64,000 nucleotides of DNA from Candidatus Woesearchaeota archaeon (GTDB lineage: Archaea > Nanobdellota > Nanobdellia > Woesearchaeales > JAHWIC01), in assembly GCA_019322805.1 (NCBI GenBank), contig JAHWIC010000003.1:964-64963 (forward strand), written 5' to 3'. Made by a program: the position numbers and the translations under genes. Under the pieces are notes generated by a model that was not told where the DNA came from, ran no database searches, and worked only from the letters and a program-made list of their open reading frames with translations. This document shows positions 3,053 through 58,747 of the stretch, in pieces; position 1 is the stretch's first letter; each line of letters begins with the position of its first letter.

Positions 3053-4720
3053 ATGAGGGAGCCAGCACTTAAATTAGATTATCCAGATTTGAACCCGATA
3101 GAGGGCAATAGTGTAAATCAAATTATTGAAGGGGCTAGAAATGATGGCGCTATTTCTTATGGGTTACTTAATGACAGATTACCTTCAAGCATTACTAGGC
3201 CAGGACAGATTGATGCGGTTCTTTCAAGGCTTGATGAAGAAGGCATTGATTTAGTAACCGAGATGGAGCTTAGAAAGAGGCGTTCAAGGCCTGATCCCGA
3301 GAGAATCATGGTTGATAAAGAGTCAAATCTATCAGATGCTGTGAGGATATATCTCGAACAGATGGGTGGCTATCGGCTGCTTACCCAAGATGAAGAAATA
3401 AGGTTGTCAAAAGGATTAGAAATATACTATAAGCACTTTGTCAGGGCTATCCTCCGGTCTTATGAAGGGCTCAAGGCACTTAACGAACATTACGAGAGAG
3501 TTATAGATCACTATATGGGTAGCGAATCTAGAAAATCACGAGAGCCAGAGGCTATAACCAAAATAAAGGAATACAATGAAGAAGTTAGAAAGAAACTTGA
3601 GTTGATCAGAGAAATTAATGCAGAGCTTTGTTTAAGGAGAACATCAGAGAGGAGAAAAAGAGAACTCAGGGAACTTAGAAGACAAATTATAAGAAAAGAA
3701 GCAGATTCACTTGAGGAATCGTTCTATTTGGATTATCAACCTGCCAGAGTCAAGGATTGGGTTTTGACTTCAGTGATGGAAAAATATGCTGAAGCTACTA
3801 CAAAGGTTGGGCATTATGAAGGTAGGTTAAAAGAAGAAAGGAGAACAAGAAATGATCCTAAGGAAGTCTCAAGGCTTGAAACAAGGATCGACAGATTAAA
3901 AAGACAGTATTCAGATGAATTTGGTGAGGATTGGAAGTATGTACAGATAAGACATGCATTGCTACAAAAAAGATCCAAAGCTACTGCAGCATTAGTGAAG
4001 AGACTTACGCAGGGAAACCTTCGGCTTGTTGTAAGTATTGCAAAAAAATATAGGAATAGGGGATTACCTTTCCTTGATTTGATCCAGGAAGGAAATGGCG
4101 GTTTAATGAAAGCTATTTGGAAATATGAATATAGGAGGGGCTATAAATTTTCAACATATGCAACATGGTGGATAAAGCAAGCTATAAGCAGAGCTATAAT
4201 TAATAATGCAAGAACAATAAGGATACCTGCACATATGATTGAAACGATGTCGCGCTTTCGCAAGACATCAAGGGACCTTATGCAAAGGATTGGGCATGAG
4301 CCTACAGTAGATGAGCTTGCTAAAGAGGCAGAACTTCCAATATCTGAAGTGCAGCGTCTCATGCAAATATCCAAGTACCCTGTAAGCCTTGATAGGCCTA
4401 TAGGAGATTCAAAAGATACATACTTTGGAGACTTTATTGAAGATAAAGATGTTGCAAGCCCTATAGTTGTAGCCTCTCACTACCAATTAGCAAATAAGAT
4501 CAATGAGGTATTAGATACGCTCACATACAGAGAAAGAGAAGTAGTAAAAATGAGATTTGGAGTTGGTTATGACCAAGACTTTACTTTAGACGCAGTTGGA
4601 AGAAGATTTAAGGTTACAAGAGAAAGGATAAGGCAGATTGTGGCAAAAGCTATGAGGAAATTGCAGCATCCAGTTAGGTCAAGAGAACTGGAAGGTTTCT
4701 TAGACGAAAGAGTTTCTTAG
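3053..4720 (+). CDS. rpoD: RpoD-like (group 1 type) sigma-70 factor
   Basis: Region 1.1-like N-terminus. Region 1.2: DAVRIYLEQMGGYRLLTQDEE. Region 2: NLRLVVSIAKKYRNRGLPFLDLIQEGNGGLMKAIWKYEYRRGYKFSTYATWWIKQAISRAI. Region 3 is present. Region 4.2: RFKVTRERIRQIVAKAMRKLQHP. Confidence 0.9.
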   Translation: MREPALKLDYPDLNPIEGNSVNQIIEGARNDGAISYGLLNDRLPSSITRPGQIDAVLSRLDEEGIDLVTEMELRKRRSRPDPERIMVDKESNLSDAVRIYLEQMGGYRLLTQDEEIRLSKGLEIYYKHFVRAILRSYEGLKALNEHYERVIDHYMGSESRKSREPEAITKIKEYNEEVRKKLELIREINAELCLRRTSERRKRELRELRRQIIRKEADSLEESFYLDYQPARVKDWVLTSVMEKYAEATTKVGHYEGRLKEERRTRNDPKEVSRLETRIDRLKRQYSDEFGEDWKYVQIRHALLQKRSKATAALVKRLTQGNLRLVVSIAKKYRNRGLPFLDLIQEGNGGLMKAIWKYEYRRGYKFSTYATWWIKQAISRAIINNARTIRIPAHMIETMSRFRKTSRDLMQRIGHEPTVDELAKEAELPISEVQRLMQISKYPVSLDRPIGDSKDTYFGDFIEDKDVASPIVVASHYQLANKINEVLDTLTYREREVVKMRFGVGYDQDFTLDAVGRRFKVTRERIRQIVAKAMRKLQHPVRSRELEGFLDERVS

Positions 4721-6807: not shown

Positions 6808-6874
6808 AAAACGCGAAGAAATAAGTTGATATTTATAGTTTTCTATTTGTTAAGTTGATTTCAATTTTGAATAT

Positions 6875-7015
6875 AATCATTAGAAAAATCATCAATAGGA
6901 AAAAAATCAATAAACGAAAAAAATAATTCTGATTTTTGCTTTATTCCTTTACTTAAAGCAAATCAGAATTATTTTTTTAATGATATTTCTTTTTAATGAT
7001 TTAATTTTTCTATTG
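6875..7015 (+). repeat. R-element copy R1 (minimal form: A/T-rich arms plus a single hairpin)
   Basis: AATCAATAAAC-type words, then the hairpin AATTCTGATTTTTGC ... GCAAATCAGAATT (6925-6970), then an inverted A/T-rich right arm. Confidence 0.85.
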
Positions 7016-9255: not shown

Positions 9256-9261
9256 AACAAC

Positions 9262-9360
9262 AAAATTCCGAAGGAATTTTGTGTCGCGAGAAACGCATAG
9301 CGTTTCTGTGTGCCAGAAATGCGGAGCATTTCTGAGCAGCTCAAAAAACCGAAGGTTTTT
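9262..9360 (+). other. Array of four consecutive triloop hairpins
   Basis: AAAATTCC-gaa-GGAATTTT (9262-9280). AGAAACGC-ata-GCGTTTCT (9289-9307). CAGAAATGC-gga-GCATTTCTG (9314-9334). AAAAACC-gaa-GGTTTTT (9344-9360). Confidence 0.85.
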
Positions 9361-10958: not shown

Positions 10959-10975
10959 CTTCGCTAAATACTTAA

Positions 10976-11089
10976 ATCCTCCCCATTAGTGCACAAGGAG
11001 AACGCCATAAATTGCTGACGCAATTTAATTTCACAGTGTCCCTCCCCTAACAGGCTATGCACAACAGAACATACAACTAAATATGCAAG
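10976..11089 (+). repeat. B-element copy 1 (77-nt conserved block plus tail ending in ATGCAAG)
   Basis: 10976-11052 matches 45106-45182 with 2 mismatches. It has an internal hairpin AAATTGC-tgac-GCAATTT (11009-11026). The tail CAACTAAAT-ATGCAAG provides the ATG of the next ORF. Confidence 0.9.
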
Positions 11090-11463
11090 GTGTTTTGATG
11101 GACGATGATATAAAGTTTAGATGTCCTTACTGCGGGAAATTAACCAGGCCTCATGAGAGGTATTGTGATTTCTGTGAGCAGGACTTATCAAAGGTCAGGG
11201 ATAAGTTAGAGGCAGAAGGAAGAGAAAAAGCCTGCTTTATAGCAACTGCAGCTTATGGGACTCCTTTTGCAAGAGAGATTGATGTTTTGAGGGACTGGAG
11301 GGATAACAGTTTGAATACAAATTTTTTTGGTTCTTTGTTTGTTAAGGTTTATTATAAAGTGAGCCCTCCTATTGCGAGATTTATAGCAAAGAGGAAAAAA
11401 TTAAGGAAGTTGGTTAGGATTATCTTAAAACCAATAATCAGTATCATTAGAAAAAATCAATAG
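11083..11463 (+). CDS. Zinc-ribbon protein with CFIATAAYG...LRDWRD motif domain
   Basis: CPYCG...CDFC zinc ribbon, then CFIATAAYGTPFAREIDVLRDWRD and a hydrophobic tail. The last codons and the stop lie inside R-element R2. Confidence 0.6.
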   Translation: MQGVLMDDDIKFRCPYCGKLTRPHERYCDFCEQDLSKVRDKLEAEGREKACFIATAAYGTPFAREIDVLRDWRDNSLNTNFFGSLFVKVYYKVSPPIARFIAKRKKLRKLVRIILKPIISIIRKNQ

Positions 11464-11629
11464 AAAAAAATAAATCTGATTTTTGCCTTAAGTCTACTAT
11501 AAAGCAAAAATCATCTGCAGTGTTTCTTAAAGAACCAAACTAAGATGAAAATTCCTTTATACCAGTTGTGAAAGGAATTTTCAGAATTATTTTTTTAATG
11601 AATTTCTCTATTGATTTTTTTTATTGATT
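11443..11629 (+). repeat. R-element copy R2 (canonical short form with four-way-junction core 11475-11585)
   Basis: TCTGA|TTTTTGC-17nt-GCAAAAA|TCATCT-26nt-AGATGA|AAAATTCCTTT-12nt-AAAGGAATTTT|TCAGA, flanked by imperfect inverted AATCAATAG/AAAAA words. Confidence 0.9.
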
Positions 11630-11634
11630 ACTTC

Positions 11635-13290: not shown

Positions 13291-13971
13291 ATGCTAAGAT
13301 TAATTAAAACCCGGCATGGAGAAACCCAGTATAACATAGAAAATCGTATTCAGGGAGGTATTGACACGGAGTTAACACCTCATGGCATAAGGCAAGCTGA
13401 AATGTTAGCAGACCACTTTAGGGATACTCCTATTGATTATGTTGTCTCAGGCACCTTAAAAAGGCAGGCCCAAACAGCAGGGGTTATAGCTAGGCCGCGA
13501 GGAATTAGTGTTGTACATGATGAAGGACTGAATGAAAGGGATTGGGGCAGATTCAATGGACGTTATGAACATGAGGTTGATACAGGAGGCATCCCCCTTA
13601 CCCGTTATCTTTTTTATATGGTAGATCCTAATGATGATAGTAACCCAAAAATAGAGAAAGGCCCTGAACATAAAGGAGAAACAATTGAAGAAATGATGCG
13701 TAGGATAGGACTATTTTATGATAGGCTTGTCGATAGATATGTAGACGCTACGATGTTGATTGTTGGAAGTCAGTTCTCAAATGCTTACCTCTTGAATCAT
13801 GTTCTTGGAATTCCGCCGGAATGTCCTGTTTTATTTGCCCAAGAAAATATGTGCATAAACGAGATAAGGGTTTATCCTAAAAAAGATGCCGGAAGACCTG
13901 TAGAGGTTGTTGATATAAATTTTATGGAGCATGTCCATTACAGGGATGGGTCAGTGCAAGGTACAGATTAG
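13291..13971 (+). CDS. Histidine phosphatase (phosphoglycerate mutase-like) family protein
   Basis: N-terminal RHGETQYN catalytic motif. The TATA-like TTTAATAA lies 31 nt upstream. Confidence 0.8.
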   Translation: MLRLIKTRHGETQYNIENRIQGGIDTELTPHGIRQAEMLADHFRDTPIDYVVSGTLKRQAQTAGVIARPRGISVVHDEGLNERDWGRFNGRYEHEVDTGGIPLTRYLFYMVDPNDDSNPKIEKGPEHKGETIEEMMRRIGLFYDRLVDRYVDATMLIVGSQFSNAYLLNHVLGIPPECPVLFAQENMCINEIRVYPKKDAGRPVEVVDINFMEHVHYRDGSVQGTD

Positions 13972-14918
13972 TATTCTAAACCAATTCTTGAGACGGTAAG
14001 ATGGATCAATACCTCCAGGATCTGTTCCATATTTGATAGGATAAAAAGGTTATTTGCAGGCACCTTTTTCACTAATGACCCCACTTTGTCAAATATTATG
14101 GACCTATCTTTGCTTAACTTCTCTGCCTTTTTAAGGTCAAAATTATAGAAAAAGTCATGATACAAAGAAAGAGTTTCCTGTACATCTGATATGATTGATA
14201 TAGCATCTTTTGCTAACTTTATCTTATGTGCCGTTACAAACCTAGAGCAGTATTTGATTATATCTATTATTTCATCAAGAGAAGAGATAATATGGTATAG
14301 AGTATTTGTTTTTTTATCATCAGTATAACCAAACTTATTTAAAAGTCTTAGGTTATATGCTGCAAATTTAGTTATGGTGTCATGTTTTTCATTTATGGTG
14401 TCTAGTAGCATATGATTGTTTTCTTTTGAACCTTTAACTAAATCCTTGCTTGCGTCAATCAAGAGCAGGAATATACGCCGCAGGATAGTATCAAGTTCCT
14501 TGATCACACCTTCAGATATATCTTTGATAAAGCAGGAATTTTCCTTTTGCTGTATGATCTCGATTCCATTTAATCTGTTGACCTCCTCTTTTATTGATGA
14601 AATAACTGTTACATCCTTCCCTATTTTGTGGTGTTTGGTAGTAACGTCATCAAATCTTAATTTCATTTCATCATAGCCTTTTATGTATAAGCATCTGATA
14701 AGGAACATCAAAGAATCTCTATCCAGGTTGCTTATATCAACTTCGACACGTCCTAAAGACTGTCCTTGCTCTGTACTAACAATAATCTTACTACCTTCCT
14801 CCTTAATATCGAGTTCATCTCCTTTCTTAACCTCATGCTTTTGCGCCCACTTCCTTGGCAAAGAAATCAGCTGTGTAGAATCTGCAATCTGTATAACTTT
14901 TCTTTTCAGTTTAACCAC
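13968..14918 (-). CDS. AbrB/SpoVT-domain plus PhoU-like regulator
   Basis: The N-terminal VIQIADSTQLISLPRKWAQKHEVKKGDELDI is an AbrB/MazE-type swapped hairpin, followed by a helical PhoU-like repeat region. Confidence 0.7.
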   Translation of the reverse strand: MVKLKRKVIQIADSTQLISLPRKWAQKHEVKKGDELDIKEEGSKIIVSTEQGQSLGRVEVDISNLDRDSLMFLIRCLYIKGYDEMKLRFDDVTTKHHKIGKDVTVISSIKEEVNRLNGIEIIQQKENSCFIKDISEGVIKELDTILRRIFLLLIDASKDLVKGSKENNHMLLDTINEKHDTITKFAAYNLRLLNKFGYTDDKKTNTLYHIISSLDEIIDIIKYCSRFVTAHKIKLAKDAISIISDVQETLSLYHDFFYNFDLKKAEKLSKDRSIIFDKVGSLVKKVPANNLFILSNMEQILEVLIHLTVSRIGLEY

Positions 14919-15099
14919 CCTTATAATTTAATAGTTTTATATAATCGGATTAGGAATCTATTAAACTATATAAATCTTTTCATTTTCTATAAAATTGGCT
15001 GTTTTATATAACTTTTATAAAATCTAAGGCATAACTATATAAAAAATGAGCTATTATATAGGTATATCCCGTAAACCTTACGGGATAATAAGGGGGGTG

Positions 15100-15279
15100 T
15101 TGGTAGAGTTCGAAAATAATGATTAAATCTATGCTATGAAAATAGCAAAAGATGAATCATTAAAAATTTAATGACAAATCAATGCTGGAAACAGCAAAGA
15201 CGAATCATTAAAAAAATGATTAAATCTATGTTGGAAACAACAAAAGATGAATCATAAAAAAAACAAAAAACTCTACCAA
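15100..15279 (+). other. Structured domain: 11-bp closing helix enclosing three tandem GAAA-tetraloop hairpins (candidate ncRNA)
   Basis: TTGGTAGAGTT (15100-15110) pairs with AACTCTACCAA (15269-15279). The hairpins at 15119-15160, 15171-15208 and 15216-15255 have apical stems TGCTAT/ATAGCA, TGCTG/CAGCA and TGTTG/CAACA. A separate 10-bp hairpin lies at 15065-15087. Confidence 0.7.
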
Positions 15280-15696
15280 GAACCCTTATCAAATGATGCA
15301 CAGAGGATGTTTAGATGATCAAGAAGGTGAAAAAGAAAATGGAAAAAGAAGAAAGTTTGGAGGACATTGGCATATCTTTATCTTCAGACCCTTTAGATAA
15401 GATGGGTGAGTTCAGAGCTAAATAATGGAGGCAAAGGAATAAAAAAACCGATCTGAAAAACATAAAATTCCATAATCATTGGGTCTAGTCTCAACTCAAT
15501 GATGCAAAAATCCTACCAAGGGATTTTTGTTTTAAAAACTAGTGGCCTAAAAAACCATAAATGGAATTTTAATGCACCAAGATTCAATTTTGAGGAGCTC
15601 AAAAAAACAAAAAATTTTGGCAAACTCAAAAAAATCTTTAGGAGCGGTTTTCCTTTCCCCCACTTAATGCTGAATGAAAAGGAGGAGGCAATAAAA

Positions 15697-15849
15697 ATGG
15701 GAGACCCGGGTGGTGAGCAGATCATACTTGACCCTCTTAAGCCAATCTTCTACTGCTGGGCTTGCCAGCATGAAATGATAAGCAAGGACAGTGTAACATA
15801 TGAATGTCCTGTATGTCATAACCATACTGAAAGAAAACTGGCTTATTAA
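15697..15849 (+). CDS. Small zinc-ribbon protein
   Basis: 50 aa. CWACQHEM ... CPVCHNH. The ATG is preceded by AAGGAGGAGG 9 nt upstream. The longer ORF-track version (15499) has no such signal. Confidence 0.45.
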   Translation: MGDPGGEQIILDPLKPIFYCWACQHEMISKDSVTYECPVCHNHTERKLAY

Positions 15850-22696: not shown

Positions 22697-23080
22697 TCAA
22701 TTCAAAAATTCAATAAAAAAATCATCATTAGGAGAATAATCAATAGAAGAAAAATAAACGGAAATCAGGATTTCCTAGTTGCGCTCGCTTCGCTCGGCAA
22801 CAATCTGATTTTTGCTTTCTTCTCTTCGTTAAGGCAAAAATCGTCTTAAGTGGTTCTTTAAGAAACAGAATAAGACGAAAATTCCTTTATCGCGATGAAG
22901 AAAGGAATTTTCAGATTGTGTATAAATTATGAAATAATTTACTACACTAGAAAAATGTGTTAGCATTTTTCGTTGATTAATTGTTATTAAATAAAACTAA
23001 AGGGCATCAACCGAAACAAACGCACAACTGATTGTGATGGATGAAATTTAACCTAATGATAAATTAAATTGATAGTTAAA
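22695..23080 (+). repeat. R-element copy R3 (long form; core 22804-22915)
   Basis: The same module order as R2, plus three additions: a 5' hairpin module GGAAATC/GATTTCC, an extra hairpin GAAAAATG/CATTTTTC, and a right-hand module ending at the thiE ATG. Confidence 0.9.
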
Positions 23081-26142: not shown

Positions 26143-26241
26143 GATAGGAATCCCTACTGCTGAAGAAGCAAGATAAAAAAACACCTCTTTTTTCTTAAAA
26201 AACAAAAACTATTAAAATAGAGAAAATAAATTAAATCTAAG

Positions 26242-27210
26242 ATGAACATCAAAGACATTGGCGGAGAATTTGCCTTGATAAAACGTATTGCAGCCAAGCC
26301 CAAAGACAAATCAATAATCAAAGGAATTGGCGATGATGCTGCTGTTCTTAAGCTTGGTGGTAAGCTGTTTGTTATAACCACAGACACCTTAGTTGAGAAC
26401 GATCACTTTTCCTTGAAATGGTTCAGTCCTAAGCAGGTTGGAATGAAAGCTATTGAGATTAATGCAAGCGATGTTGGTGCTATGGGCGGCAAACCAAGGT
26501 ATGCGCTTGTTTCACTTGTTCTAAAGCCGGATACTCCTGTTGAGTTTGTTGATGGTTTGTATAAAGGAATGCGTGAAGCTGGAGAGAAACATGGTATAGA
26601 GATAATTGGAGGGAATGTAACCCACGGTAAAGAGCTTGTAATTGATATTGATATGATTGGTGAGGTTGAAAAACAAAATCTTTGCCTGCGTTCAAATGCA
26701 AAGCCAGGTGATTTTATCCTGGTTAGCGGTGATGCTGGAAAGTCAACAGCTGCTTTGCATTTATTCAGGAAGAGTAAGCTCAATAAAAAGAATAAAAATA
26801 ATTTTAAAAAAATAATTGAAGCGCATACAGAGCCAAAAGCCAGATTTGATAAGGTAAAGAAGTTCATAAAATACATTAATGCAATGATTGATGTTTCTGA
26901 TGGTATTGCTTCTGATATAACAAGGCTCTGTGAGCAGAGCAATGTAGGGGCTGTTATTTACGCTGATAATATTCCTATAGCTGATGAAACAAAGAAAGCT
27001 GCAAAACTGCTTGGAGAGAATGCGTTGGATTATGCTTTATATGGCGGAGAGGATTTTGAGCTAGTCTTTACTGTTTCTGAGAAGAATCTAAGGAATGTAA
27101 AAGGATTTCTCATTGGAGAGATTACAAAGAAGAAGGGCGTTCGCTTATATCAGCACGGAAAAGAAAAGCTGATTACAAAGCATGGCTATGACCATTTTAT
27201 TGGCCCTTAA
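26242..27210 (+). CDS. thiL: Thiamine-monophosphate kinase
   Basis: IGGEFALIKRI ... GIGDDAAVL and an AIR-synthase-like fold pattern. Confidence 0.85.
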   Translation: MNIKDIGGEFALIKRIAAKPKDKSIIKGIGDDAAVLKLGGKLFVITTDTLVENDHFSLKWFSPKQVGMKAIEINASDVGAMGGKPRYALVSLVLKPDTPVEFVDGLYKGMREAGEKHGIEIIGGNVTHGKELVIDIDMIGEVEKQNLCLRSNAKPGDFILVSGDAGKSTAALHLFRKSKLNKKNKNNFKKIIEAHTEPKARFDKVKKFIKYINAMIDVSDGIASDITRLCEQSNVGAVIYADNIPIADETKKAAKLLGENALDYALYGGEDFELVFTVSEKNLRNVKGFLIGEITKKKGVRLYQHGKEKLITKHGYDHFIGP

Positions 27211-29282: not shown

Positions 29283-29672
29283 ATGCAGTACAGCAAAAAG
29301 GTCGTAGAACACTTTAGGAATCCGCACAACATGGGTGAGATAAAGAACCCAGATGGTATAGGTAAGGTAGGCAATCCTATATGCGGCGATGTCATGTGGA
29401 TTTATATAAAGGTGGGAAAGAATAAAAAAGGACAAGAGATAGTCAAAGACATTAAGTTCAAAACCTTTGGCTGTGCAGCTGCAATTGCAACCTCTTCTAT
29501 GACTACTGATTTAGCTAAAGGGAAGACTCTAGATGAAGCAATGAAGCTGACAAGGGATGATGTAAAGAATGCTCTTGAAGGTTTGCCTCCTATCAAAATC
29601 CATTGCAGCAACTTAGCAGCAGATGGTTTGCATAAGGCAATTGAAGATTACAGAAAGAAATCAAAGAAATAA
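29283..29672 (+). CDS. iscU: Fe-S cluster scaffold IscU/NifU-like
   Basis: GNPICGD, FKTFGCAAAIA and HCSNLA motifs (three cluster-ligand cysteines). Confidence 0.9.
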   Translation: MQYSKKVVEHFRNPHNMGEIKNPDGIGKVGNPICGDVMWIYIKVGKNKKGQEIVKDIKFKTFGCAAAIATSSMTTDLAKGKTLDEAMKLTRDDVKNALEGLPPIKIHCSNLAADGLHKAIEDYRKKSKK

Positions 29673-30022
29673 TCCAATAAAAGAAATCATTTTAAAAAAT
29701 CAATAAAAACAAAAAATAAATCTGATTTTTGCCTTAAGTCTACTATAAAGCAAAAATCATCCGCTTCTGTTTCTTAAGAAACAGAACAAGATGAAAATTT
29801 AGTAAACGCAACTATTTTATGAAAGATTGCGTTTACTATTTAGTAAGCGAAACTATTGATTATATAATTTCGCTTACTATAACCTTTACAGTGGTTCTGA
29901 AAGGAATTTTCGGAATGATTAATTGTTTTAAAATTTAAATTAAAGTGATGAAAAACAACCATATGCACGACTAATTGTAATAGATGAAATTTAACCTAGT
30001 GATAAAATAAATTGATGATAAA
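29671..30022 (+). repeat. R-element copy R4 (long form; core 29721-29914 with nested twin-hairpin insertion 29799-29882)
   Basis: The same modules as R2. Arm 3 is interrupted by TAGTAAACGCAA...TTGCGTTTACTA and TAGTAAGCGAAA...TTTCGCTTACTA. The right-hand module ends at the ATG at 30023. Confidence 0.9.
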
Positions 30023-30883
30023 ATGACGGCAAGAAACCAATTCATAAGATCCTTTGAAACTAAAATAAAGAACACTATAAAAAAATACAGTCTAATCAAC
30101 AAAAAAGATAAAATCCTGGTTGCTTGCTCTGGCGGAAAAGACTCAACAACTGCTTTATACCTGTTAAACAAGTTTGGCTATAAAGTTGAAGCGATTGCAA
30201 TTGATATGCTGATAGGAAATTATTCAAAAGAAAATATGAAGAATATAGAGAGGTTCTGCGGCGACAATAAAATAAAACTCCATAAGATATCTTTTAGGGA
30301 TGAGTTCGGCCATTCTTTATGTTACTTAACCTCTGTTCTAAAATCAAAAGGCTCCAGACTGGAATCATGCACTGTATGCGGAATCTTAAGAAGGCATCTT
30401 TTGAACAGAAAGGTAAGAGAGCTAAAAGCAGCAAAAGTAGCAACAGGCCATAATCTTGACGATGAAGCGCAAACAATCCTTATGAATATCTTAAAAGGAA
30501 ATCCAGGCTTAAATGCTAAACTTGGCCCTGAGACAGGGGTTGTCAAGGACAAGAAATTTGTTCCCAGGATAAAGCCTTTGTTCTTTTGCCTAGAAAAAGA
30601 TGTTGAAAAATACTCTAGATTGATGAAATTTCCAGTTAAGTATGGCCGTTGCCCATGCTCAGTTGGTGTTTTTAGGGCTTCTGTAAGAGAAGAGCTAAGA
30701 AAATTAAGGAATACCGATAAAATAAAACTAAATATTGTTAATGATTTTTTAAAACAACTGCCAAAATTAAGAGCCAAATACAAAACGAATGAAAAAATCA
30801 GTTACTGCACTGAATGTGGTGAGCCAAGCAAGGGAAAAGTCTGCAGTGCCTGTAGGATACTGCAGCTTTTGAATTCAAACTAA
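30023..30883 (+). CDS. PP-loop ATPase, tRNA 2-thiolation family (TtuA/TtcA/Ncs6-like)
   Basis: ACSGGKDS PP-loop, CTVCGILRR, and the C-terminal CTECG...CSAC zinc/Fe-S motifs. Confidence 0.8.
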   Translation: MTARNQFIRSFETKIKNTIKKYSLINKKDKILVACSGGKDSTTALYLLNKFGYKVEAIAIDMLIGNYSKENMKNIERFCGDNKIKLHKISFRDEFGHSLCYLTSVLKSKGSRLESCTVCGILRRHLLNRKVRELKAAKVATGHNLDDEAQTILMNILKGNPGLNAKLGPETGVVKDKKFVPRIKPLFFCLEKDVEKYSRLMKFPVKYGRCPCSVGVFRASVREELRKLRNTDKIKLNIVNDFLKQLPKLRAKYKTNEKISYCTECGEPSKGKVCSACRILQLLNSN

Positions 30884-45077: not shown

Positions 45078-45105
45078 TGGCGCTCAAAGAAAAATTTTAT
45101 CTTTG

Positions 45106-45229
45106 ATCCTCCCCACTAGTGCACAAGGAGAACGCCATAAATTGCTGACGCAATTTAATTTCACAGTGCCCCTCCCCTAACAAATCTGTTAGAGGTACGC
45201 AACTAAATTAGAGGAATGGAAAATGCAAG
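45106..45229 (+). repeat. B-element copy 2
   Basis: 45106-45182 matches 10976-11052 with 2 mismatches. The tail is GCAACTAAAT, then a 14-nt insert, then ATGCAAG. Confidence 0.9.
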
Positions 45230-45359
45230 CATACTCACTAGCGTTCGTAGCTTACATTTTTTAACATAAGAAAAGGTGAAGTAAAAAATGCAAGCATACT
45301 CACTAGCGTTCGTAGCTTACATTTTTTAACATAAGAAAAGGTGAAGTAAAAAATGCAAG
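45223..45359 (+). repeat. Perfect 65-bp tandem duplication (2 full copies plus first 7 nt of a third, which is the atpE start)
   Basis: 45223-45287 is identical to 45288-45352. Each copy carries ATGCAAGC..., a 13-codon ORF (MQAYSLAFVAYIF) and the AAAAGGTGAAGTAAAAA SD region. The third ATGCAAG at 45353 starts atpE. Confidence 0.95.
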
Positions 45360-47353: not shown

Positions 47354-47665
47354 AAATAAATCAATAAGAAAGAATCAATGGGAAAAATCAATAAACACAA
47401 AAAAATAATCTGATTTTTGCTTTATAATCCACATTAAGGCAAAAATCATCATCCGTCTTTCCTTTAAGTATACATTAAAGGAAGGGAAGAGGATGAAAAT
47501 TCCTTGAGCGTGGTTGTGAAAGGAATTTTCAGAATGATTAGTTGCCATTAAATGATTAATTTGATATGATAAAAACAAACAAATGCGCAACAAATTGTGC
47601 ATGCATATCAACACCCAATGATCAAAATCAATGATGATAATTAAAAACAAATCAATGGTGATATT
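47354..47665 (+). repeat. R-element copy R5 (long form; core 47409-47533) between atpF and atpA
   Basis: It fills the whole 312-nt atpF-atpA spacer. The right-hand module contains the hairpin GCGCAA-caaa-TTGTGC (47585-47600) and ends with AATGGTGATATT-ATG. Confidence 0.9.
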
Positions 47666-52386: not shown

Positions 52387-52758
52387 AAATCAATAAAAAC
52401 AATTATCATTAAAAAATCAATAAAAACAAAAAATAAACGGGAATCAAAGATTCCTTAGTAGGGCTTGTTTCACTCGGCAACAATCTGATTTTTGCCCCAA
52501 ATCAATTTGAAAAAATTCAATAAACGAAAAATAATAAATAGGATTTTTGCTTGATATTCAACAGTAAAGCAAAAATCATCTACAGTGTTTCTAAAGAACC
52601 AAACTAAGATGAAAATTCCTTGAGCGTGGTTGTGAAAGGAATTTTCGGATTTATTAATTGTTATTTAATAAAAATTAAAGAAATAAAAACACAACCAAGT
52701 GCGCAACTAATTGTGCATACATTCCAGCACCCAGTGATAATATCAATAAAACCCTTAA
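52387..52758 (+). repeat. R-element locus R6 (truncated copy interrupted by a complete copy; core 52540-52649)
   Basis: A 5' module as in R3 and TCTGATTTTTGC (52484-52495) are followed by a new left arm (AATCAATTTG...AATAAACGAAAAA) and then a full core and right-hand module. Confidence 0.9.
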
Positions 52759-58073: not shown

Positions 58074-58448
58074 TTGGATAAAATGGGCATATTTGTTGTT
58101 CAAAAACATAAAGCAACTCACTTGCACTGGGACTTTCGTTTAGAGCTTGATGGCGTCTTAAAATCTTGGGCTGTTCCGAAAGAGCCGCCTAAAGCAAAAG
58201 GAATAAAGAGGCTGGCTATAAAAGTAGAAGACCATGAGCTTGATTATGCAGGGTTTGAAGGAACAATCCCAGAAGGAATGTATGGTGCAGGAACTGTTAA
58301 GATCTGGGATAAAGGAACTTACGAATTAAAGGAAAAAGCCAAAGATAGGCTTGTTTTTGAGCTAAAAGGGAAAAAATTAAAAGGAAGTTATTGCTTAATA
58401 AGGTTTAAGAAGGCTGGAGCAAAGAATTGGTTACTATTCAAGATGTAA
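58074..58448 (+). CDS. LigD-type 3'-phosphoesterase domain protein
   Basis: FVVQKHKATHLHWDFRLELDGVLKSWAVPKEPP ... DYAGFEGTIPEGMYGAGTVKIWDKGTY. The start may be the ATG at 58083. Confidence 0.8.
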   Translation: MDKMGIFVVQKHKATHLHWDFRLELDGVLKSWAVPKEPPKAKGIKRLAIKVEDHELDYAGFEGTIPEGMYGAGTVKIWDKGTYELKEKAKDRLVFELKGKKLKGSYCLIRFKKAGAKNWLLFKM

Positions 58449-58747
58449 TCAATAAAAAGAAACCAATTTGGAAAAATCAATAAAAACAAAAAATCAATCC
58501 GATTTTTGCTTAATGCTCCACATTAAGGCAAAAATCGTTGAAAACCACCTTCGGTGGTTTTTAACGTGCTCAGAAATCATACCTAATGAAATGGATAAGT
58601 ATGATTTCCGACACATCCGCTGTCATTGCTAAAGGAAAAGAAGAGGATGAAAATTCCCTTATGGTGGTTGTGAAAGGAATTTTCAGATTAAATTTTTATT
58701 GTTTTTTTGTTTATTGATTTCAGATTAAGGAATGATGGTGATAAAAT
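58447..58747 (+). repeat. R-element copy R7 (short TIR-bounded form with expanded arm 2; core 58498-58687)
   Basis: Arm 2 carries CGTTGAAAACCACC-ttcg-GGTGGTTTTTAACG (a UUCG loop) and GAAATCATAC...GTATGATTTC. The right arm TTTTATTGTTTTTTTGTTTATTGATT is an inverted copy of the left words. Confidence 0.9.

Follow-up and report, generated by a model that had tools for sequence, protein, structure and literature searches.

BOX elements of Streptococcus pneumoniae are built from boxA and boxC modules separated by a tandem boxB array, in which boxB folds largely alone, and they affect genes that are co-transcribed with them (PMC3049150). An element of comparable layout lies at about 15088–15292 in a 64,000-nt stretch of contig JAHWIC010000003.1 (assembly GCA_019322805.1) from a Candidatus Woesearchaeota archaeon; this whole stretch is called the window here and all coordinates refer to it unless a related locus is named. 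The element is 204 nt long in total with 72% A+T and consists of inverted-repeat ends around three tandem modules of 47–48 nt, each of which forms its own imperfect hairpin. With BOX it shares the complementary, paired end modules, variable tandem modules of ~45 nt that fold alone, an AT-rich sequence, the intergenic and presumably co-transcribed location and a tight RNA structure (PMC3049150), and pneumococcal BOX is its closest described analogue. However, BOX is bacterial, present in >100 copies per genome and equipped with terminal inverted repeats (TIRs) resembling those of an insertion sequence (IS), whereas the element is archaeal, was found once in ~75 kb, has no sequence similarity to BOX and no known partner transposase. 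We read it as a lineage-specific composite palindromic repeat of the type A-B3-C, similar to BOX or to MITEs (miniature inverted-repeat transposable elements), that is carried in a 5' leader, and consider the chances of this reading to be about even.

An original prediction, made from the DNA letters alone, had proposed a candidate novel non-coding RNA (ncRNA) at this site. All sequence features that it described were found again, including the perfect complement of the 11-bp closing helix and the perfect stem of the 10-bp hairpin in front of it. The hairpin and the parts of the element are as follows:

15065–15087, plus strand: perfect 10-bp hairpin with a 3-nt loop, TATCCCGTAA-acc-TTACGGGATA (−11.8 kcal/mol; unpaired probability 0.06)
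15088–15110, plus strand: 5' strand of the closing helix with the outer AUAAGGG (15088–15094) and the inner, perfect UUGGUAGAGUU (15100–15110); contains GGGGGGTG
15119–15160, plus strand: Unit 1 (U1), basal stem reaching to 15117–15162; GAAA loop 15138–15141; −14.5 kcal/mol
15167–15212, plus strand: Unit 2 (U2), a degenerate copy; GAAA loop 15188–15191; −12.5 kcal/mol
15216–15255, plus strand: Unit 3 (U3), U1 scaffold with the apical stem TGTTG/CAACA; GAAA loop 15234–15237; −11.3 kcal/mol
15256–15268, plus strand: A-rich single-stranded linker (A8-C-A4 of A8CA6; unpaired probability 1.0), giving T-tracts on the minus strand
15269–15289, plus strand: 3' strand of the closing helix with AACUCUACCAA (15269–15279) and the outer CCCUUAU (15283–15289)

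Tandem Repeats Finder (TRF) describes 15113–15263 as a tandem repeat with a period of 47, 3.1 copies and 77% matches, and the units are separated by A-rich linkers of only 3–6 nt. U1 has the sequence layout ATGATT-AA-ATCT-A-TGCTAT-GAAA-ATAGCA-AA-AGAT-G-AATCAT and its hairpin is ordered as 8 bp, AAxG loop, 4 bp, AxAA loop, 6 bp and GAAA, while U2 follows the order 8 bp, 4×4 loop, 2 bp, 2×2 loop, 5 bp and GAAA. The closing helix pairs TTGGTAGAGTT (15100–15110) with AACTCTACCAA (15269–15279) perfectly over 11 bp, can be extended imperfectly to 15094–15110/15269–15285 (17 nt, 88%) and continues in the minimum free energy (MFE) fold to 15088–15094/15283–15289, making up an imperfect helix of ~23 nt with one loop. 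The hairpin scaffold of U1 and U3, that is the two lower stems and both internal loops, is identical, and within the hairpin the apical stem is the sole difference, with pairing kept throughout (C-G to T-A, A-T to G-C and the loss of one base pair from both sides of the stem); the basal-stem extension and the linkers, which lie outside the core of the hairpin, differ as well. All three units keep the GAAA loop. As to the covarying stems that had been claimed, pairing-preserving apical changes do exist, but only among three tandem paralogues in one genome and not between species, and the changes in the middle stem of U2 are uncompensated. The apical changes are suggestive and fit selection on the hairpin, be it RNA or single-stranded DNA (ssDNA), and also symmetric repair within a palindrome, three sequences being too few to tell them apart.

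The segment 15060–15300 (241 nt) folds at −76.7 kcal/mol compared to −31 kcal/mol in shuffled sequences (z = −12.0) into a closed four-way junction with A-rich single-stranded linkers. Every helix of the element is retained in the partition function, and each unit also reaches −11 to −14.5 kcal/mol by itself. Only 6 of 20000 shuffles gave a perfect complement of 11 bp between the 40-nt flanks on either side of the array, and the element segment ranks second by structure among the 160-nt pieces of the window. The structure is real and far beyond chance. The minus strand of the same segment reaches −75.9 kcal/mol (z = −11.95) and the helices contain no G-U pair at all, which is what is expected for a DNA palindrome; since both strands fold equally and G-U pairs are lacking, thermodynamics can tell neither the strand nor RNA from DNA.

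The surroundings of the element were compared with four related loci (L003, L007, L015 and L016), to which the promoter region was aligned, and contain the following features:

13968–14918, minus strand: AbrB/SpoVT-PhoU-type regulator gene, 316 aa, the divergent neighbour (Pfam PF04014; 892 homologues, of which the best ones with a name are Woesearchaeotal)
15024–15046, plus strand: conserved promoter block TAAGGCATAACTATATAAAAAA with the TATA box at 15036–15043, serving the small-ORF operon (ORF, open reading frame) and one of the blocks that are near-invariant across the aligned relatives
15303–15425, plus strand: Shine-Dalgarno sequence GAGGATG (15303–15309) and 36-aa ORF (15315–15425); the gene is called in loci L001 and L002, with homologous 36-aa ORFs in L007 and L016
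15427–15696, plus strand: non-coding stretch with nested inverted repeats (15463–15473/15561–15571 and 15423–15439/15650–15666; z = −3.9), absent in L007
15505–15533, plus strand: terminator-like hairpin CAAAAATCC-TACCAAG-GGATTTTTG running into TTTTTGTTTT (15524–15533), the first plus-strand T5 run after the promoter
15697–15849, plus strand: 50-aa zinc-ribbon ORF, kept in relatives

The transcription start site (TSS) can be estimated from the usual archaeal distance between TATA box and TSS and would lie at ~15064–15068, ~26 nt after the TATA centre, where the 10-bp hairpin starts. At this predicted start of the transcript, the hairpin would be either a 5'-terminal stem-loop or an operator palindrome that covers the TSS. 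In the aligned relatives the first ORF starts ~45–55 nt after the same TATA box, and the GGGGGGTG in the 5' closing strand of the element aligns with their Shine-Dalgarno sequence. In the window the promoter is followed by the 10-bp hairpin, GGGGGGTG, the 200-nt element, a second Shine-Dalgarno sequence and the 36-aa ORF, and the genes downstream of the element are this ORF, the zinc ribbon and a TP_methylase. Thus, the 580-nt region that had been taken as gene-free is not, as it includes the conserved 36-aa ORF and the zinc-ribbon ORF begins at 15697. Lying between a conserved TATA box and a conserved 36-aa ORF, the element is very probably part of the 5' leader, and its position downstream of the operon promoter suggests that it is transcribed there. 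Oligo-T is the archaeal termination signal. From 15044 to 15523 the sense strand has no T5 run compared to ten on the antisense strand, and neither a T-tract nor a terminator was found on the sense strand between the element and the 36-aa ORF, which makes the domain probably a leader segment and not a discrete gene. The hairpin at 15505–15529 looks like a terminator as it runs into TTTTTGTTTT. The simplest transcript model that these signals allow would have its TSS at ~15066, a leader with the element, the 36-aa ORF and a terminator at ~15530; the Shine-Dalgarno sequence of the ORF is mostly unpaired in the ensemble (unpaired probability 0.71).

The same downstream hairpin had been proposed to present in its loop the octamer CTACCAAG of the 3' closing strand and thereby possibly to compete with the closing helix. 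Its 9-bp stem is present, but the first C of CTACCAAG belongs to the stem and the loop has 7 nt. Nothing beyond this match of 7–8 nt was found for a competition between loop and helix, and a 12-mer with two mismatches, as in the third copy at 15505–15529, occurs eight times in the window compared to 5.9 expected, which is not rarer than chance. In L007 the 36-aa and zinc-ribbon ORFs are only 12 nt apart, compared to the 270-nt insert in the window, and at the position of this insert (15427–15696) L016 carries a non-homologous multi-hairpin spacer of ~240 nt (L016 2341–2580, minus strand). The first gene of the operon in L003 (3589–3732), L015 (2644–2826) and L016 (2693–2830), in each case on the minus strand of the locus, is a conserved acidic ORF of 45–60 aa (..EDDE(M/I)..EA(A/G)FMQGY..). 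It is missing in the window and in L007, and in the window the triple-hairpin element takes its place. A coding remnant was rejected: the ORFs inside the units (MIKSML*, 13 aa and 28 aa) have no Shine-Dalgarno sequence and no similarity to the acidic 'FMQGY' ORF of the relatives.

Six assemblies that represent the same species and stem from different samples carry the element in identical form, and the only variation near it is one extra A in the A-tract after U3 (position 15255). As these assemblies are 99.96% identical overall, the identity of the element says nothing about constraint. Between the same promoter and ORF it is absent in L003, L007, L015 and L016, and at its site L014 carries different DNA with an IS200/IS605-type gene and no copy of the element; in these five related Woesearchaeota, the nearest other species lacking it, the AbrB-PhoU proteins are 61–67% identical. 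Searches with blastn (word size 7) using the element, each unit, the 10-bp hairpin and the second spacer gave no copies in the window or the related loci, a borderline match at 26222–26325 being coding DNA. A BLAST search of plasmids and phages found no matches either. Unit-pattern scans gave 52 single chance matches in GTDB species representatives and five in IMG/VR, all without the apical stem, and a pattern scan of the JGI metagenomes gave three chance matches in coding DNA; the scans of public collections did not return the window's own contig, so that copies in the same genome cannot be counted by them. In IMG/VR a scan for the inverted-repeat pair met two homologous viral contigs with unrelated, GC-richer interiors, which count as one chance event: L085 (6774–6959) and L086 (859–1044) carry the 11-bp pair TTGGTAGAGTT...AACTCTACCAA 186 nt apart, for which the expectation is ~0.2. 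Our Rfam searches gave no match at the gathering score in the whole window and, in a permissive search of 14850–15750 (E up to 10), only chance matches with E>1; no tRNA or transfer-messenger RNA (tmRNA) gene was found. A homologous locus with conserved pairing, the lack of which was one half of what the original prediction had named as speaking against it, was found neither in relatives nor in the databases searched. The element is therefore an orphan and not a member of a conserved ncRNA family. Two contigs from Logan, L082 and L084, which are independent assemblies of the same species, both end at the base equivalent to 15116, 3 nt before U1. This shared end could reflect a polymorphism in unit copy number through unequal crossing-over between the A-tracts before U1 and U3, for which sequences would part at just this base, or a loss of coverage induced by the hairpins.

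Inverted-repeat ends, a length below 300 bp, a high A+T content, strong folding, an internal tandem module and presence or absence between species are features that the element has in common with MITE and BOX families. If it is such a composite repeat, it would have arisen at the DNA level by insertion, by slippage-type local tandem amplification of a hairpin unit or by both, and it would be co-transcribed in the leader of the operon of the 36-aa ORF and the 50-aa zinc-ribbon ORF. The RNA would then fold on itself, so that the ends of the insert meet and the Shine-Dalgarno sequence of the 36-aa ORF is left largely unpaired, and only an orientation that leaves the sense strand free of T-tracts would be compatible with read-through to this ORF. 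The most likely effect would be that the stability of the mRNA or its translation changes passively or modestly, as shown for bacterial BOX, REP or Correia-type repeats, and the 5'-terminal 10-bp stem-loop may act jointly by protecting against decay that depends on the 5' end. Several observations weigh against a composite repeat. MITE and BOX families are multi-copy, but the element was seen once in ~75 kb, as no second copy was found in the window plus a 10-kb extension, which together are <10% of the genome. No direct repeat that could be a target-site duplication was found at 15088/15289 or 15100/15279, the similarity between GGGGGGTG and GAGGATG being too weak, and there is no transposase nearby and no Y1 transposase in the window. 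Moreover, the identical scaffold of U1 and U3, the pairing-preserving apical changes and the GAAA loop in 3/3 units would also be expected from selection on RNA or ssDNA hairpins. With further copies (within the ~75 kb) and a target-site duplication lacking, the element resembles the BOX/MITE type and is not filed as a proven MITE.

The intergenic region upstream of the regulator in L014 (1–341), whose AbrB-PhoU protein is the closest from another species (67% identical), contains an IS200/IS605-type ORF similar to TnpA (..NAYHLVWKPKYAKDPF..) and a CTTGGGC-TTT-GCCCAAG hairpin, showing that the same site is a target for mobile DNA in a relative. Three other contigs of this species (L011–L013) break ~50 nt upstream of the AbrB-PhoU gene.

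Clusters of repetitive extragenic palindromes (REP) and bacterial interspersed mosaic elements (BIME) depend on RAYT Y1 transposases for their mobilisation and, being transcribed, have an influence on mRNA stability. They resemble the element in being clustered imperfect palindromes with conserved mismatches and short linkers (background in PMC3049150). In contrast to them, the element has no GTAG-type tetranucleotide beside its units, all of its units have the same orientation and the window encodes no Y1 transposase.

In archaea, a Woesearchaeal genome has been listed among the most MITE-dense ones with 105 per Mb (PMC11602168), and the window has a repeat-rich background as well, with 27 perfect hairpins (stem of at least 8 bp) compared to ~9 in shuffled sequences. 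It contains an interspersed repeat family of at least seven copies (module A seven times, module B six times), all on the plus strand:

~6871–7010, 11428–11632, 22704–22930, 29654–29954, 47359–47573, 52388–52689 and 58445–58722, plus strand: copies of the interspersed family

In a copy, the A-rich leader AATCAATAAAAACAAAAAAT is followed by one conserved hairpin, GATTTTTGC...GCAAAAATC, by variable hairpins and by a second conserved one, GAAAATTCC...GGAATTTTC; most copies end in a T-rich tail whose sequence is reverse-complementary to the leader. Two copies were folded (at 11.5 and 58.5 kb), and in both a long closing helix encloses three to five tandem hairpins; the fold z-scores of the family range from −5.9 to −7.7. 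The three copies checked for their position (11463, 22696 and 58448) begin either at a stop codon or shortly behind one; two copies sit in convergent gaps. Their stems are conserved in sequence and show no covariation, as expected for recently spread repeats, and nhmmer did not find the family in the loci of related species. A density of 7 per 64 kb equals the published MITE density, and the family probably corresponds to the MITE load that has been published for a Woesearchaeal genome (PMC11602168). Beyond this MITE census, literature on hairpin repeats in Woesearchaeota or DPANN archaea gave nothing specific. Like these MITEs and the family in the window, the element is small, AT-rich, strongly folded, intergenic and species-specific with terminal inverted repeats; it differs in being single-copy so far, in having no target-site duplication and in lying in a 5' leader, compared to the inter-gene gaps occupied by the family. 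Membership by sequence was ruled out, since nhmmer profiles of the two family modules gave no match to the element (E about 1) and only short A-rich words and the design are shared. As the family repeats the architecture of a closing helix around hairpins, the prior for the element changes. The proposal of a candidate novel ncRNA finds partial support only: there remains a structure beyond chance on the sense strand of a probable transcript, but it is an orphan that folds equally on both strands, has no terminator after the domain and shows covariation among paralogues only, in a window where the same design recurs at least seven times.

Besides the composite repeat, the reading that survives best is a functional cis-regulatory leader RNA, which we regard as rather unlikely: the three equivalent hairpins would be a multi-site platform for an RNA-binding protein, such as the zinc-ribbon or the 36-aa product of the operon or a general factor, that controls stability or translation of the operon mRNA, and this would be compatible with a repeat-like origin. 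Structured leaders, riboswitches and protein-binding leaders likewise have a multi-helix junction with GNRA loops between promoter and first ORF, and the element is placed between a conserved promoter and a conserved ORF, with GNRA loops and the lack of T-tracts on the sense strand only, a very stable and well-defined ensemble and pairing-preserving changes confined to the apical stems next to an identical U1/U3 scaffold. It also counts here that long structured leaders are unusual in archaea. In contrast to known leaders, however, the element has no Rfam match, occurs in one species only and is built from near-identical copies and not from distinct conserved helices. It is absent in all relatives that keep the operon and thus not needed for the basic regulation of the operon, U2 is degenerate, and the three paralogues are without independent covariation. 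A recognisable protein-binding motif is missing too. Kink-turns (K-turns) have tandem sheared G-A pairs beside a 3-nt bulge, and the bulge-helix-bulge (BHB) motif has one 3-nt bulge on either strand, in both cases 3' of a 4-bp helix. The internal loops AAxG and AxAA hold no tandem G-A pairs for a K-turn, and their 2-nt sides are found on the 5' side of the 4-bp helix, which is opposite to the BHB geometry. A young but functional leader RNA whose three equivalent GAAA-capped hairpins, with their fixed pair of asymmetric internal loops, would titrate or recruit a protein such as the zinc-ribbon or the 36-aa product, or else DPANN-specific 'closed multi-hairpin' modules of untranslated regions which, together with the family in the window, would serve as transcript-boundary, processing or stability signals, is unlikely in our view.

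Other RNA and repeat classes were compared and rejected. Type III antitoxin RNA arrays (ToxI) are similar in having tandem repeats of ~36–48 nt directly 3' of a promoter and 5' of protein genes, but no ToxN/AbiQ-like toxin is present, the downstream genes are kept in relatives without the repeats and the units are hairpins and not pseudoknots. A CRISPR array does not fit units that are parted by an A-rich linker of 3–6 nt only, and for a box C/D RNA there are AUGAUGC words at 15294 and 15497 but no matching D box.

It is doubtful that the palindromes act as double-stranded DNA, as an operator array in which the three palindromes and the 10-bp palindrome over the TSS are bound by a dimeric factor, e.g., AbrB-PhoU, for a transcriptional roadblock or repression of the divergent promoters. 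The palindromes adjoin the regulator gene, the perfect one at 15065–15087 overlaps the predicted TSS and the strands are equivalent, but imperfect palindromes of 40–46 bp with conserved asymmetric mismatches suit hairpins better than B-form operators, and the array sits 80–220 bp downstream of the TSS. Furthermore, the motif is not enriched elsewhere in the window (five matches compared to 5.5 expected), and the array is missing in relatives that share the regulator and the promoter. A second AbrB-PhoU paralogue of 314 aa is encoded ~2.5 kb past the window end (L078 12254–13198), divergent from a 2002-aa beta-helix/CARDB protein. The 280-nt region upstream of this paralogue contains no copy of the hairpin units, which also speaks against operators of this regulator.

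A stand-alone or processed small RNA (sRNA) of ~180–230 nt that is released from the leader and acts in trans, as the original prediction had it, is quite improbable. The domain is compact and self-closed by a long helix, and the 5' closing strand could be a pairing partner of the loop CUACCAAG further downstream; yet neither terminator nor T-tract follows the domain, the closing helix has no BHB or other known processing motif, homologues are lacking and the recurrence of the octamer is statistically weak. Even less probable is a triple intrinsic-type terminator or insulator on the minus strand that would protect the AbrB-PhoU promoter against antisense transcription arriving from the right. 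A hairpin is followed by a T-tract three times on this strand (T7, T5 and T4) and one of them was caught by the terminator scan, but there is no minus-strand gene to the right for ~6 kb, and single-stranded spacers on the sense strand would account for the A-rich linkers just as well. A chromosomal replication origin, similar to the replication-origin-type repeat that the original prediction had named as an alternative, is hardly credible: inverted repeats with a G-run (GGGGGG, 15093–15098) do flank a 158-bp A+T-rich region like the ORB-like repeats of an AT-rich unwinding region, but the ORFs scanned in the window or within 5 kb included no Orc1/Cdc6 gene (20 ORFs of at least 280 aa, further ORFs and called neighbours, excluding 20103, 23792, 25195, 26242 and 30023 and with 17646 only as the shorter called gene), there is no skew inflection beyond the effect of gene orientation, the site is within a conserved transcription unit, the element is missing in relatives and the GGGGGG aligns with their Shine-Dalgarno sequence.

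Several other features of the window were noted. The homologues of the AbrB/SpoVT-PhoU regulator that carry names belong to Woesearchaeota or Nanoarchaeota, and genes for an aIF5A-like protein, an A-type ATPase and an ATP-dependent ligase are also encoded. On this otherwise archaeal contig a bacterial-type S-adenosylmethionine synthetase (MetK domains, 1782–2999) and a full-length sigma-70 factor (3053–4720; regions 1.1, 1.2, 2, 3 and 4; 555 aa) are found, which point either to horizontal transfer into a DPANN archaeon or to a chimeric assembly end. Four tandem perfect hairpins with 3-nt loops (GAA, ATA, GGA and GAA) lie at 9260–9350 in a 110-nt gap between co-oriented genes, and several more intergenic hairpins in the window have GNA triloops with a C-G closing pair. 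An 82-nt intergenic repeat with a central 8-bp hairpin and CCTCCCC at both ends (..CCTCCCCAyTAGTGCACAAGGAGAACGCCATAAATTGCTGACGCAATTTAATTTCACAGTGyCCCTCCCCTAACA) occurs at 10971–11052 and 45101–45182 with 95% identity, and another perfect hairpin precedes each copy. A perfect tandem duplication of a 65-nt unit (45220–45349, 100% identical), which includes the start-codon-like AAAATGCAAGC, represents an artefact of the assembly or else a very recent duplication. Finally, a 92-nt block (..ATGAAATTTAACCTARTGATAAA..) is found at 22989–23080 and 29932–30023 (75% identical), directly upstream of the start of ThiE (23069) and of a 286-aa ORF (30023). It may be a shared promoter, leader or regulatory element, and the Rfam search gave no match to the thiamine pyrophosphate (TPP) riboswitch at this block.

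If the element is a composite repeat carried in a leader, it would be a further case of palindromic composite repeats that colonise transcribed intergenic DNA, in a tiny, repeat-dense DPANN genome, and BOX-like A-Bn-C architectures would arise in archaea too. For ncRNA discovery this would also be a warning, since neither an extreme folding z-score nor GNRA loops nor 'covariation' among tandem copies would in such genomes be enough to indicate an RNA gene. If it is instead a functional leader RNA, it would represent a rare case of a structured regulatory leader that is newly born, in an archaeon not yet cultivated, and would offer a handle on the function of the conserved small-protein operon beside the AbrB-PhoU regulator.

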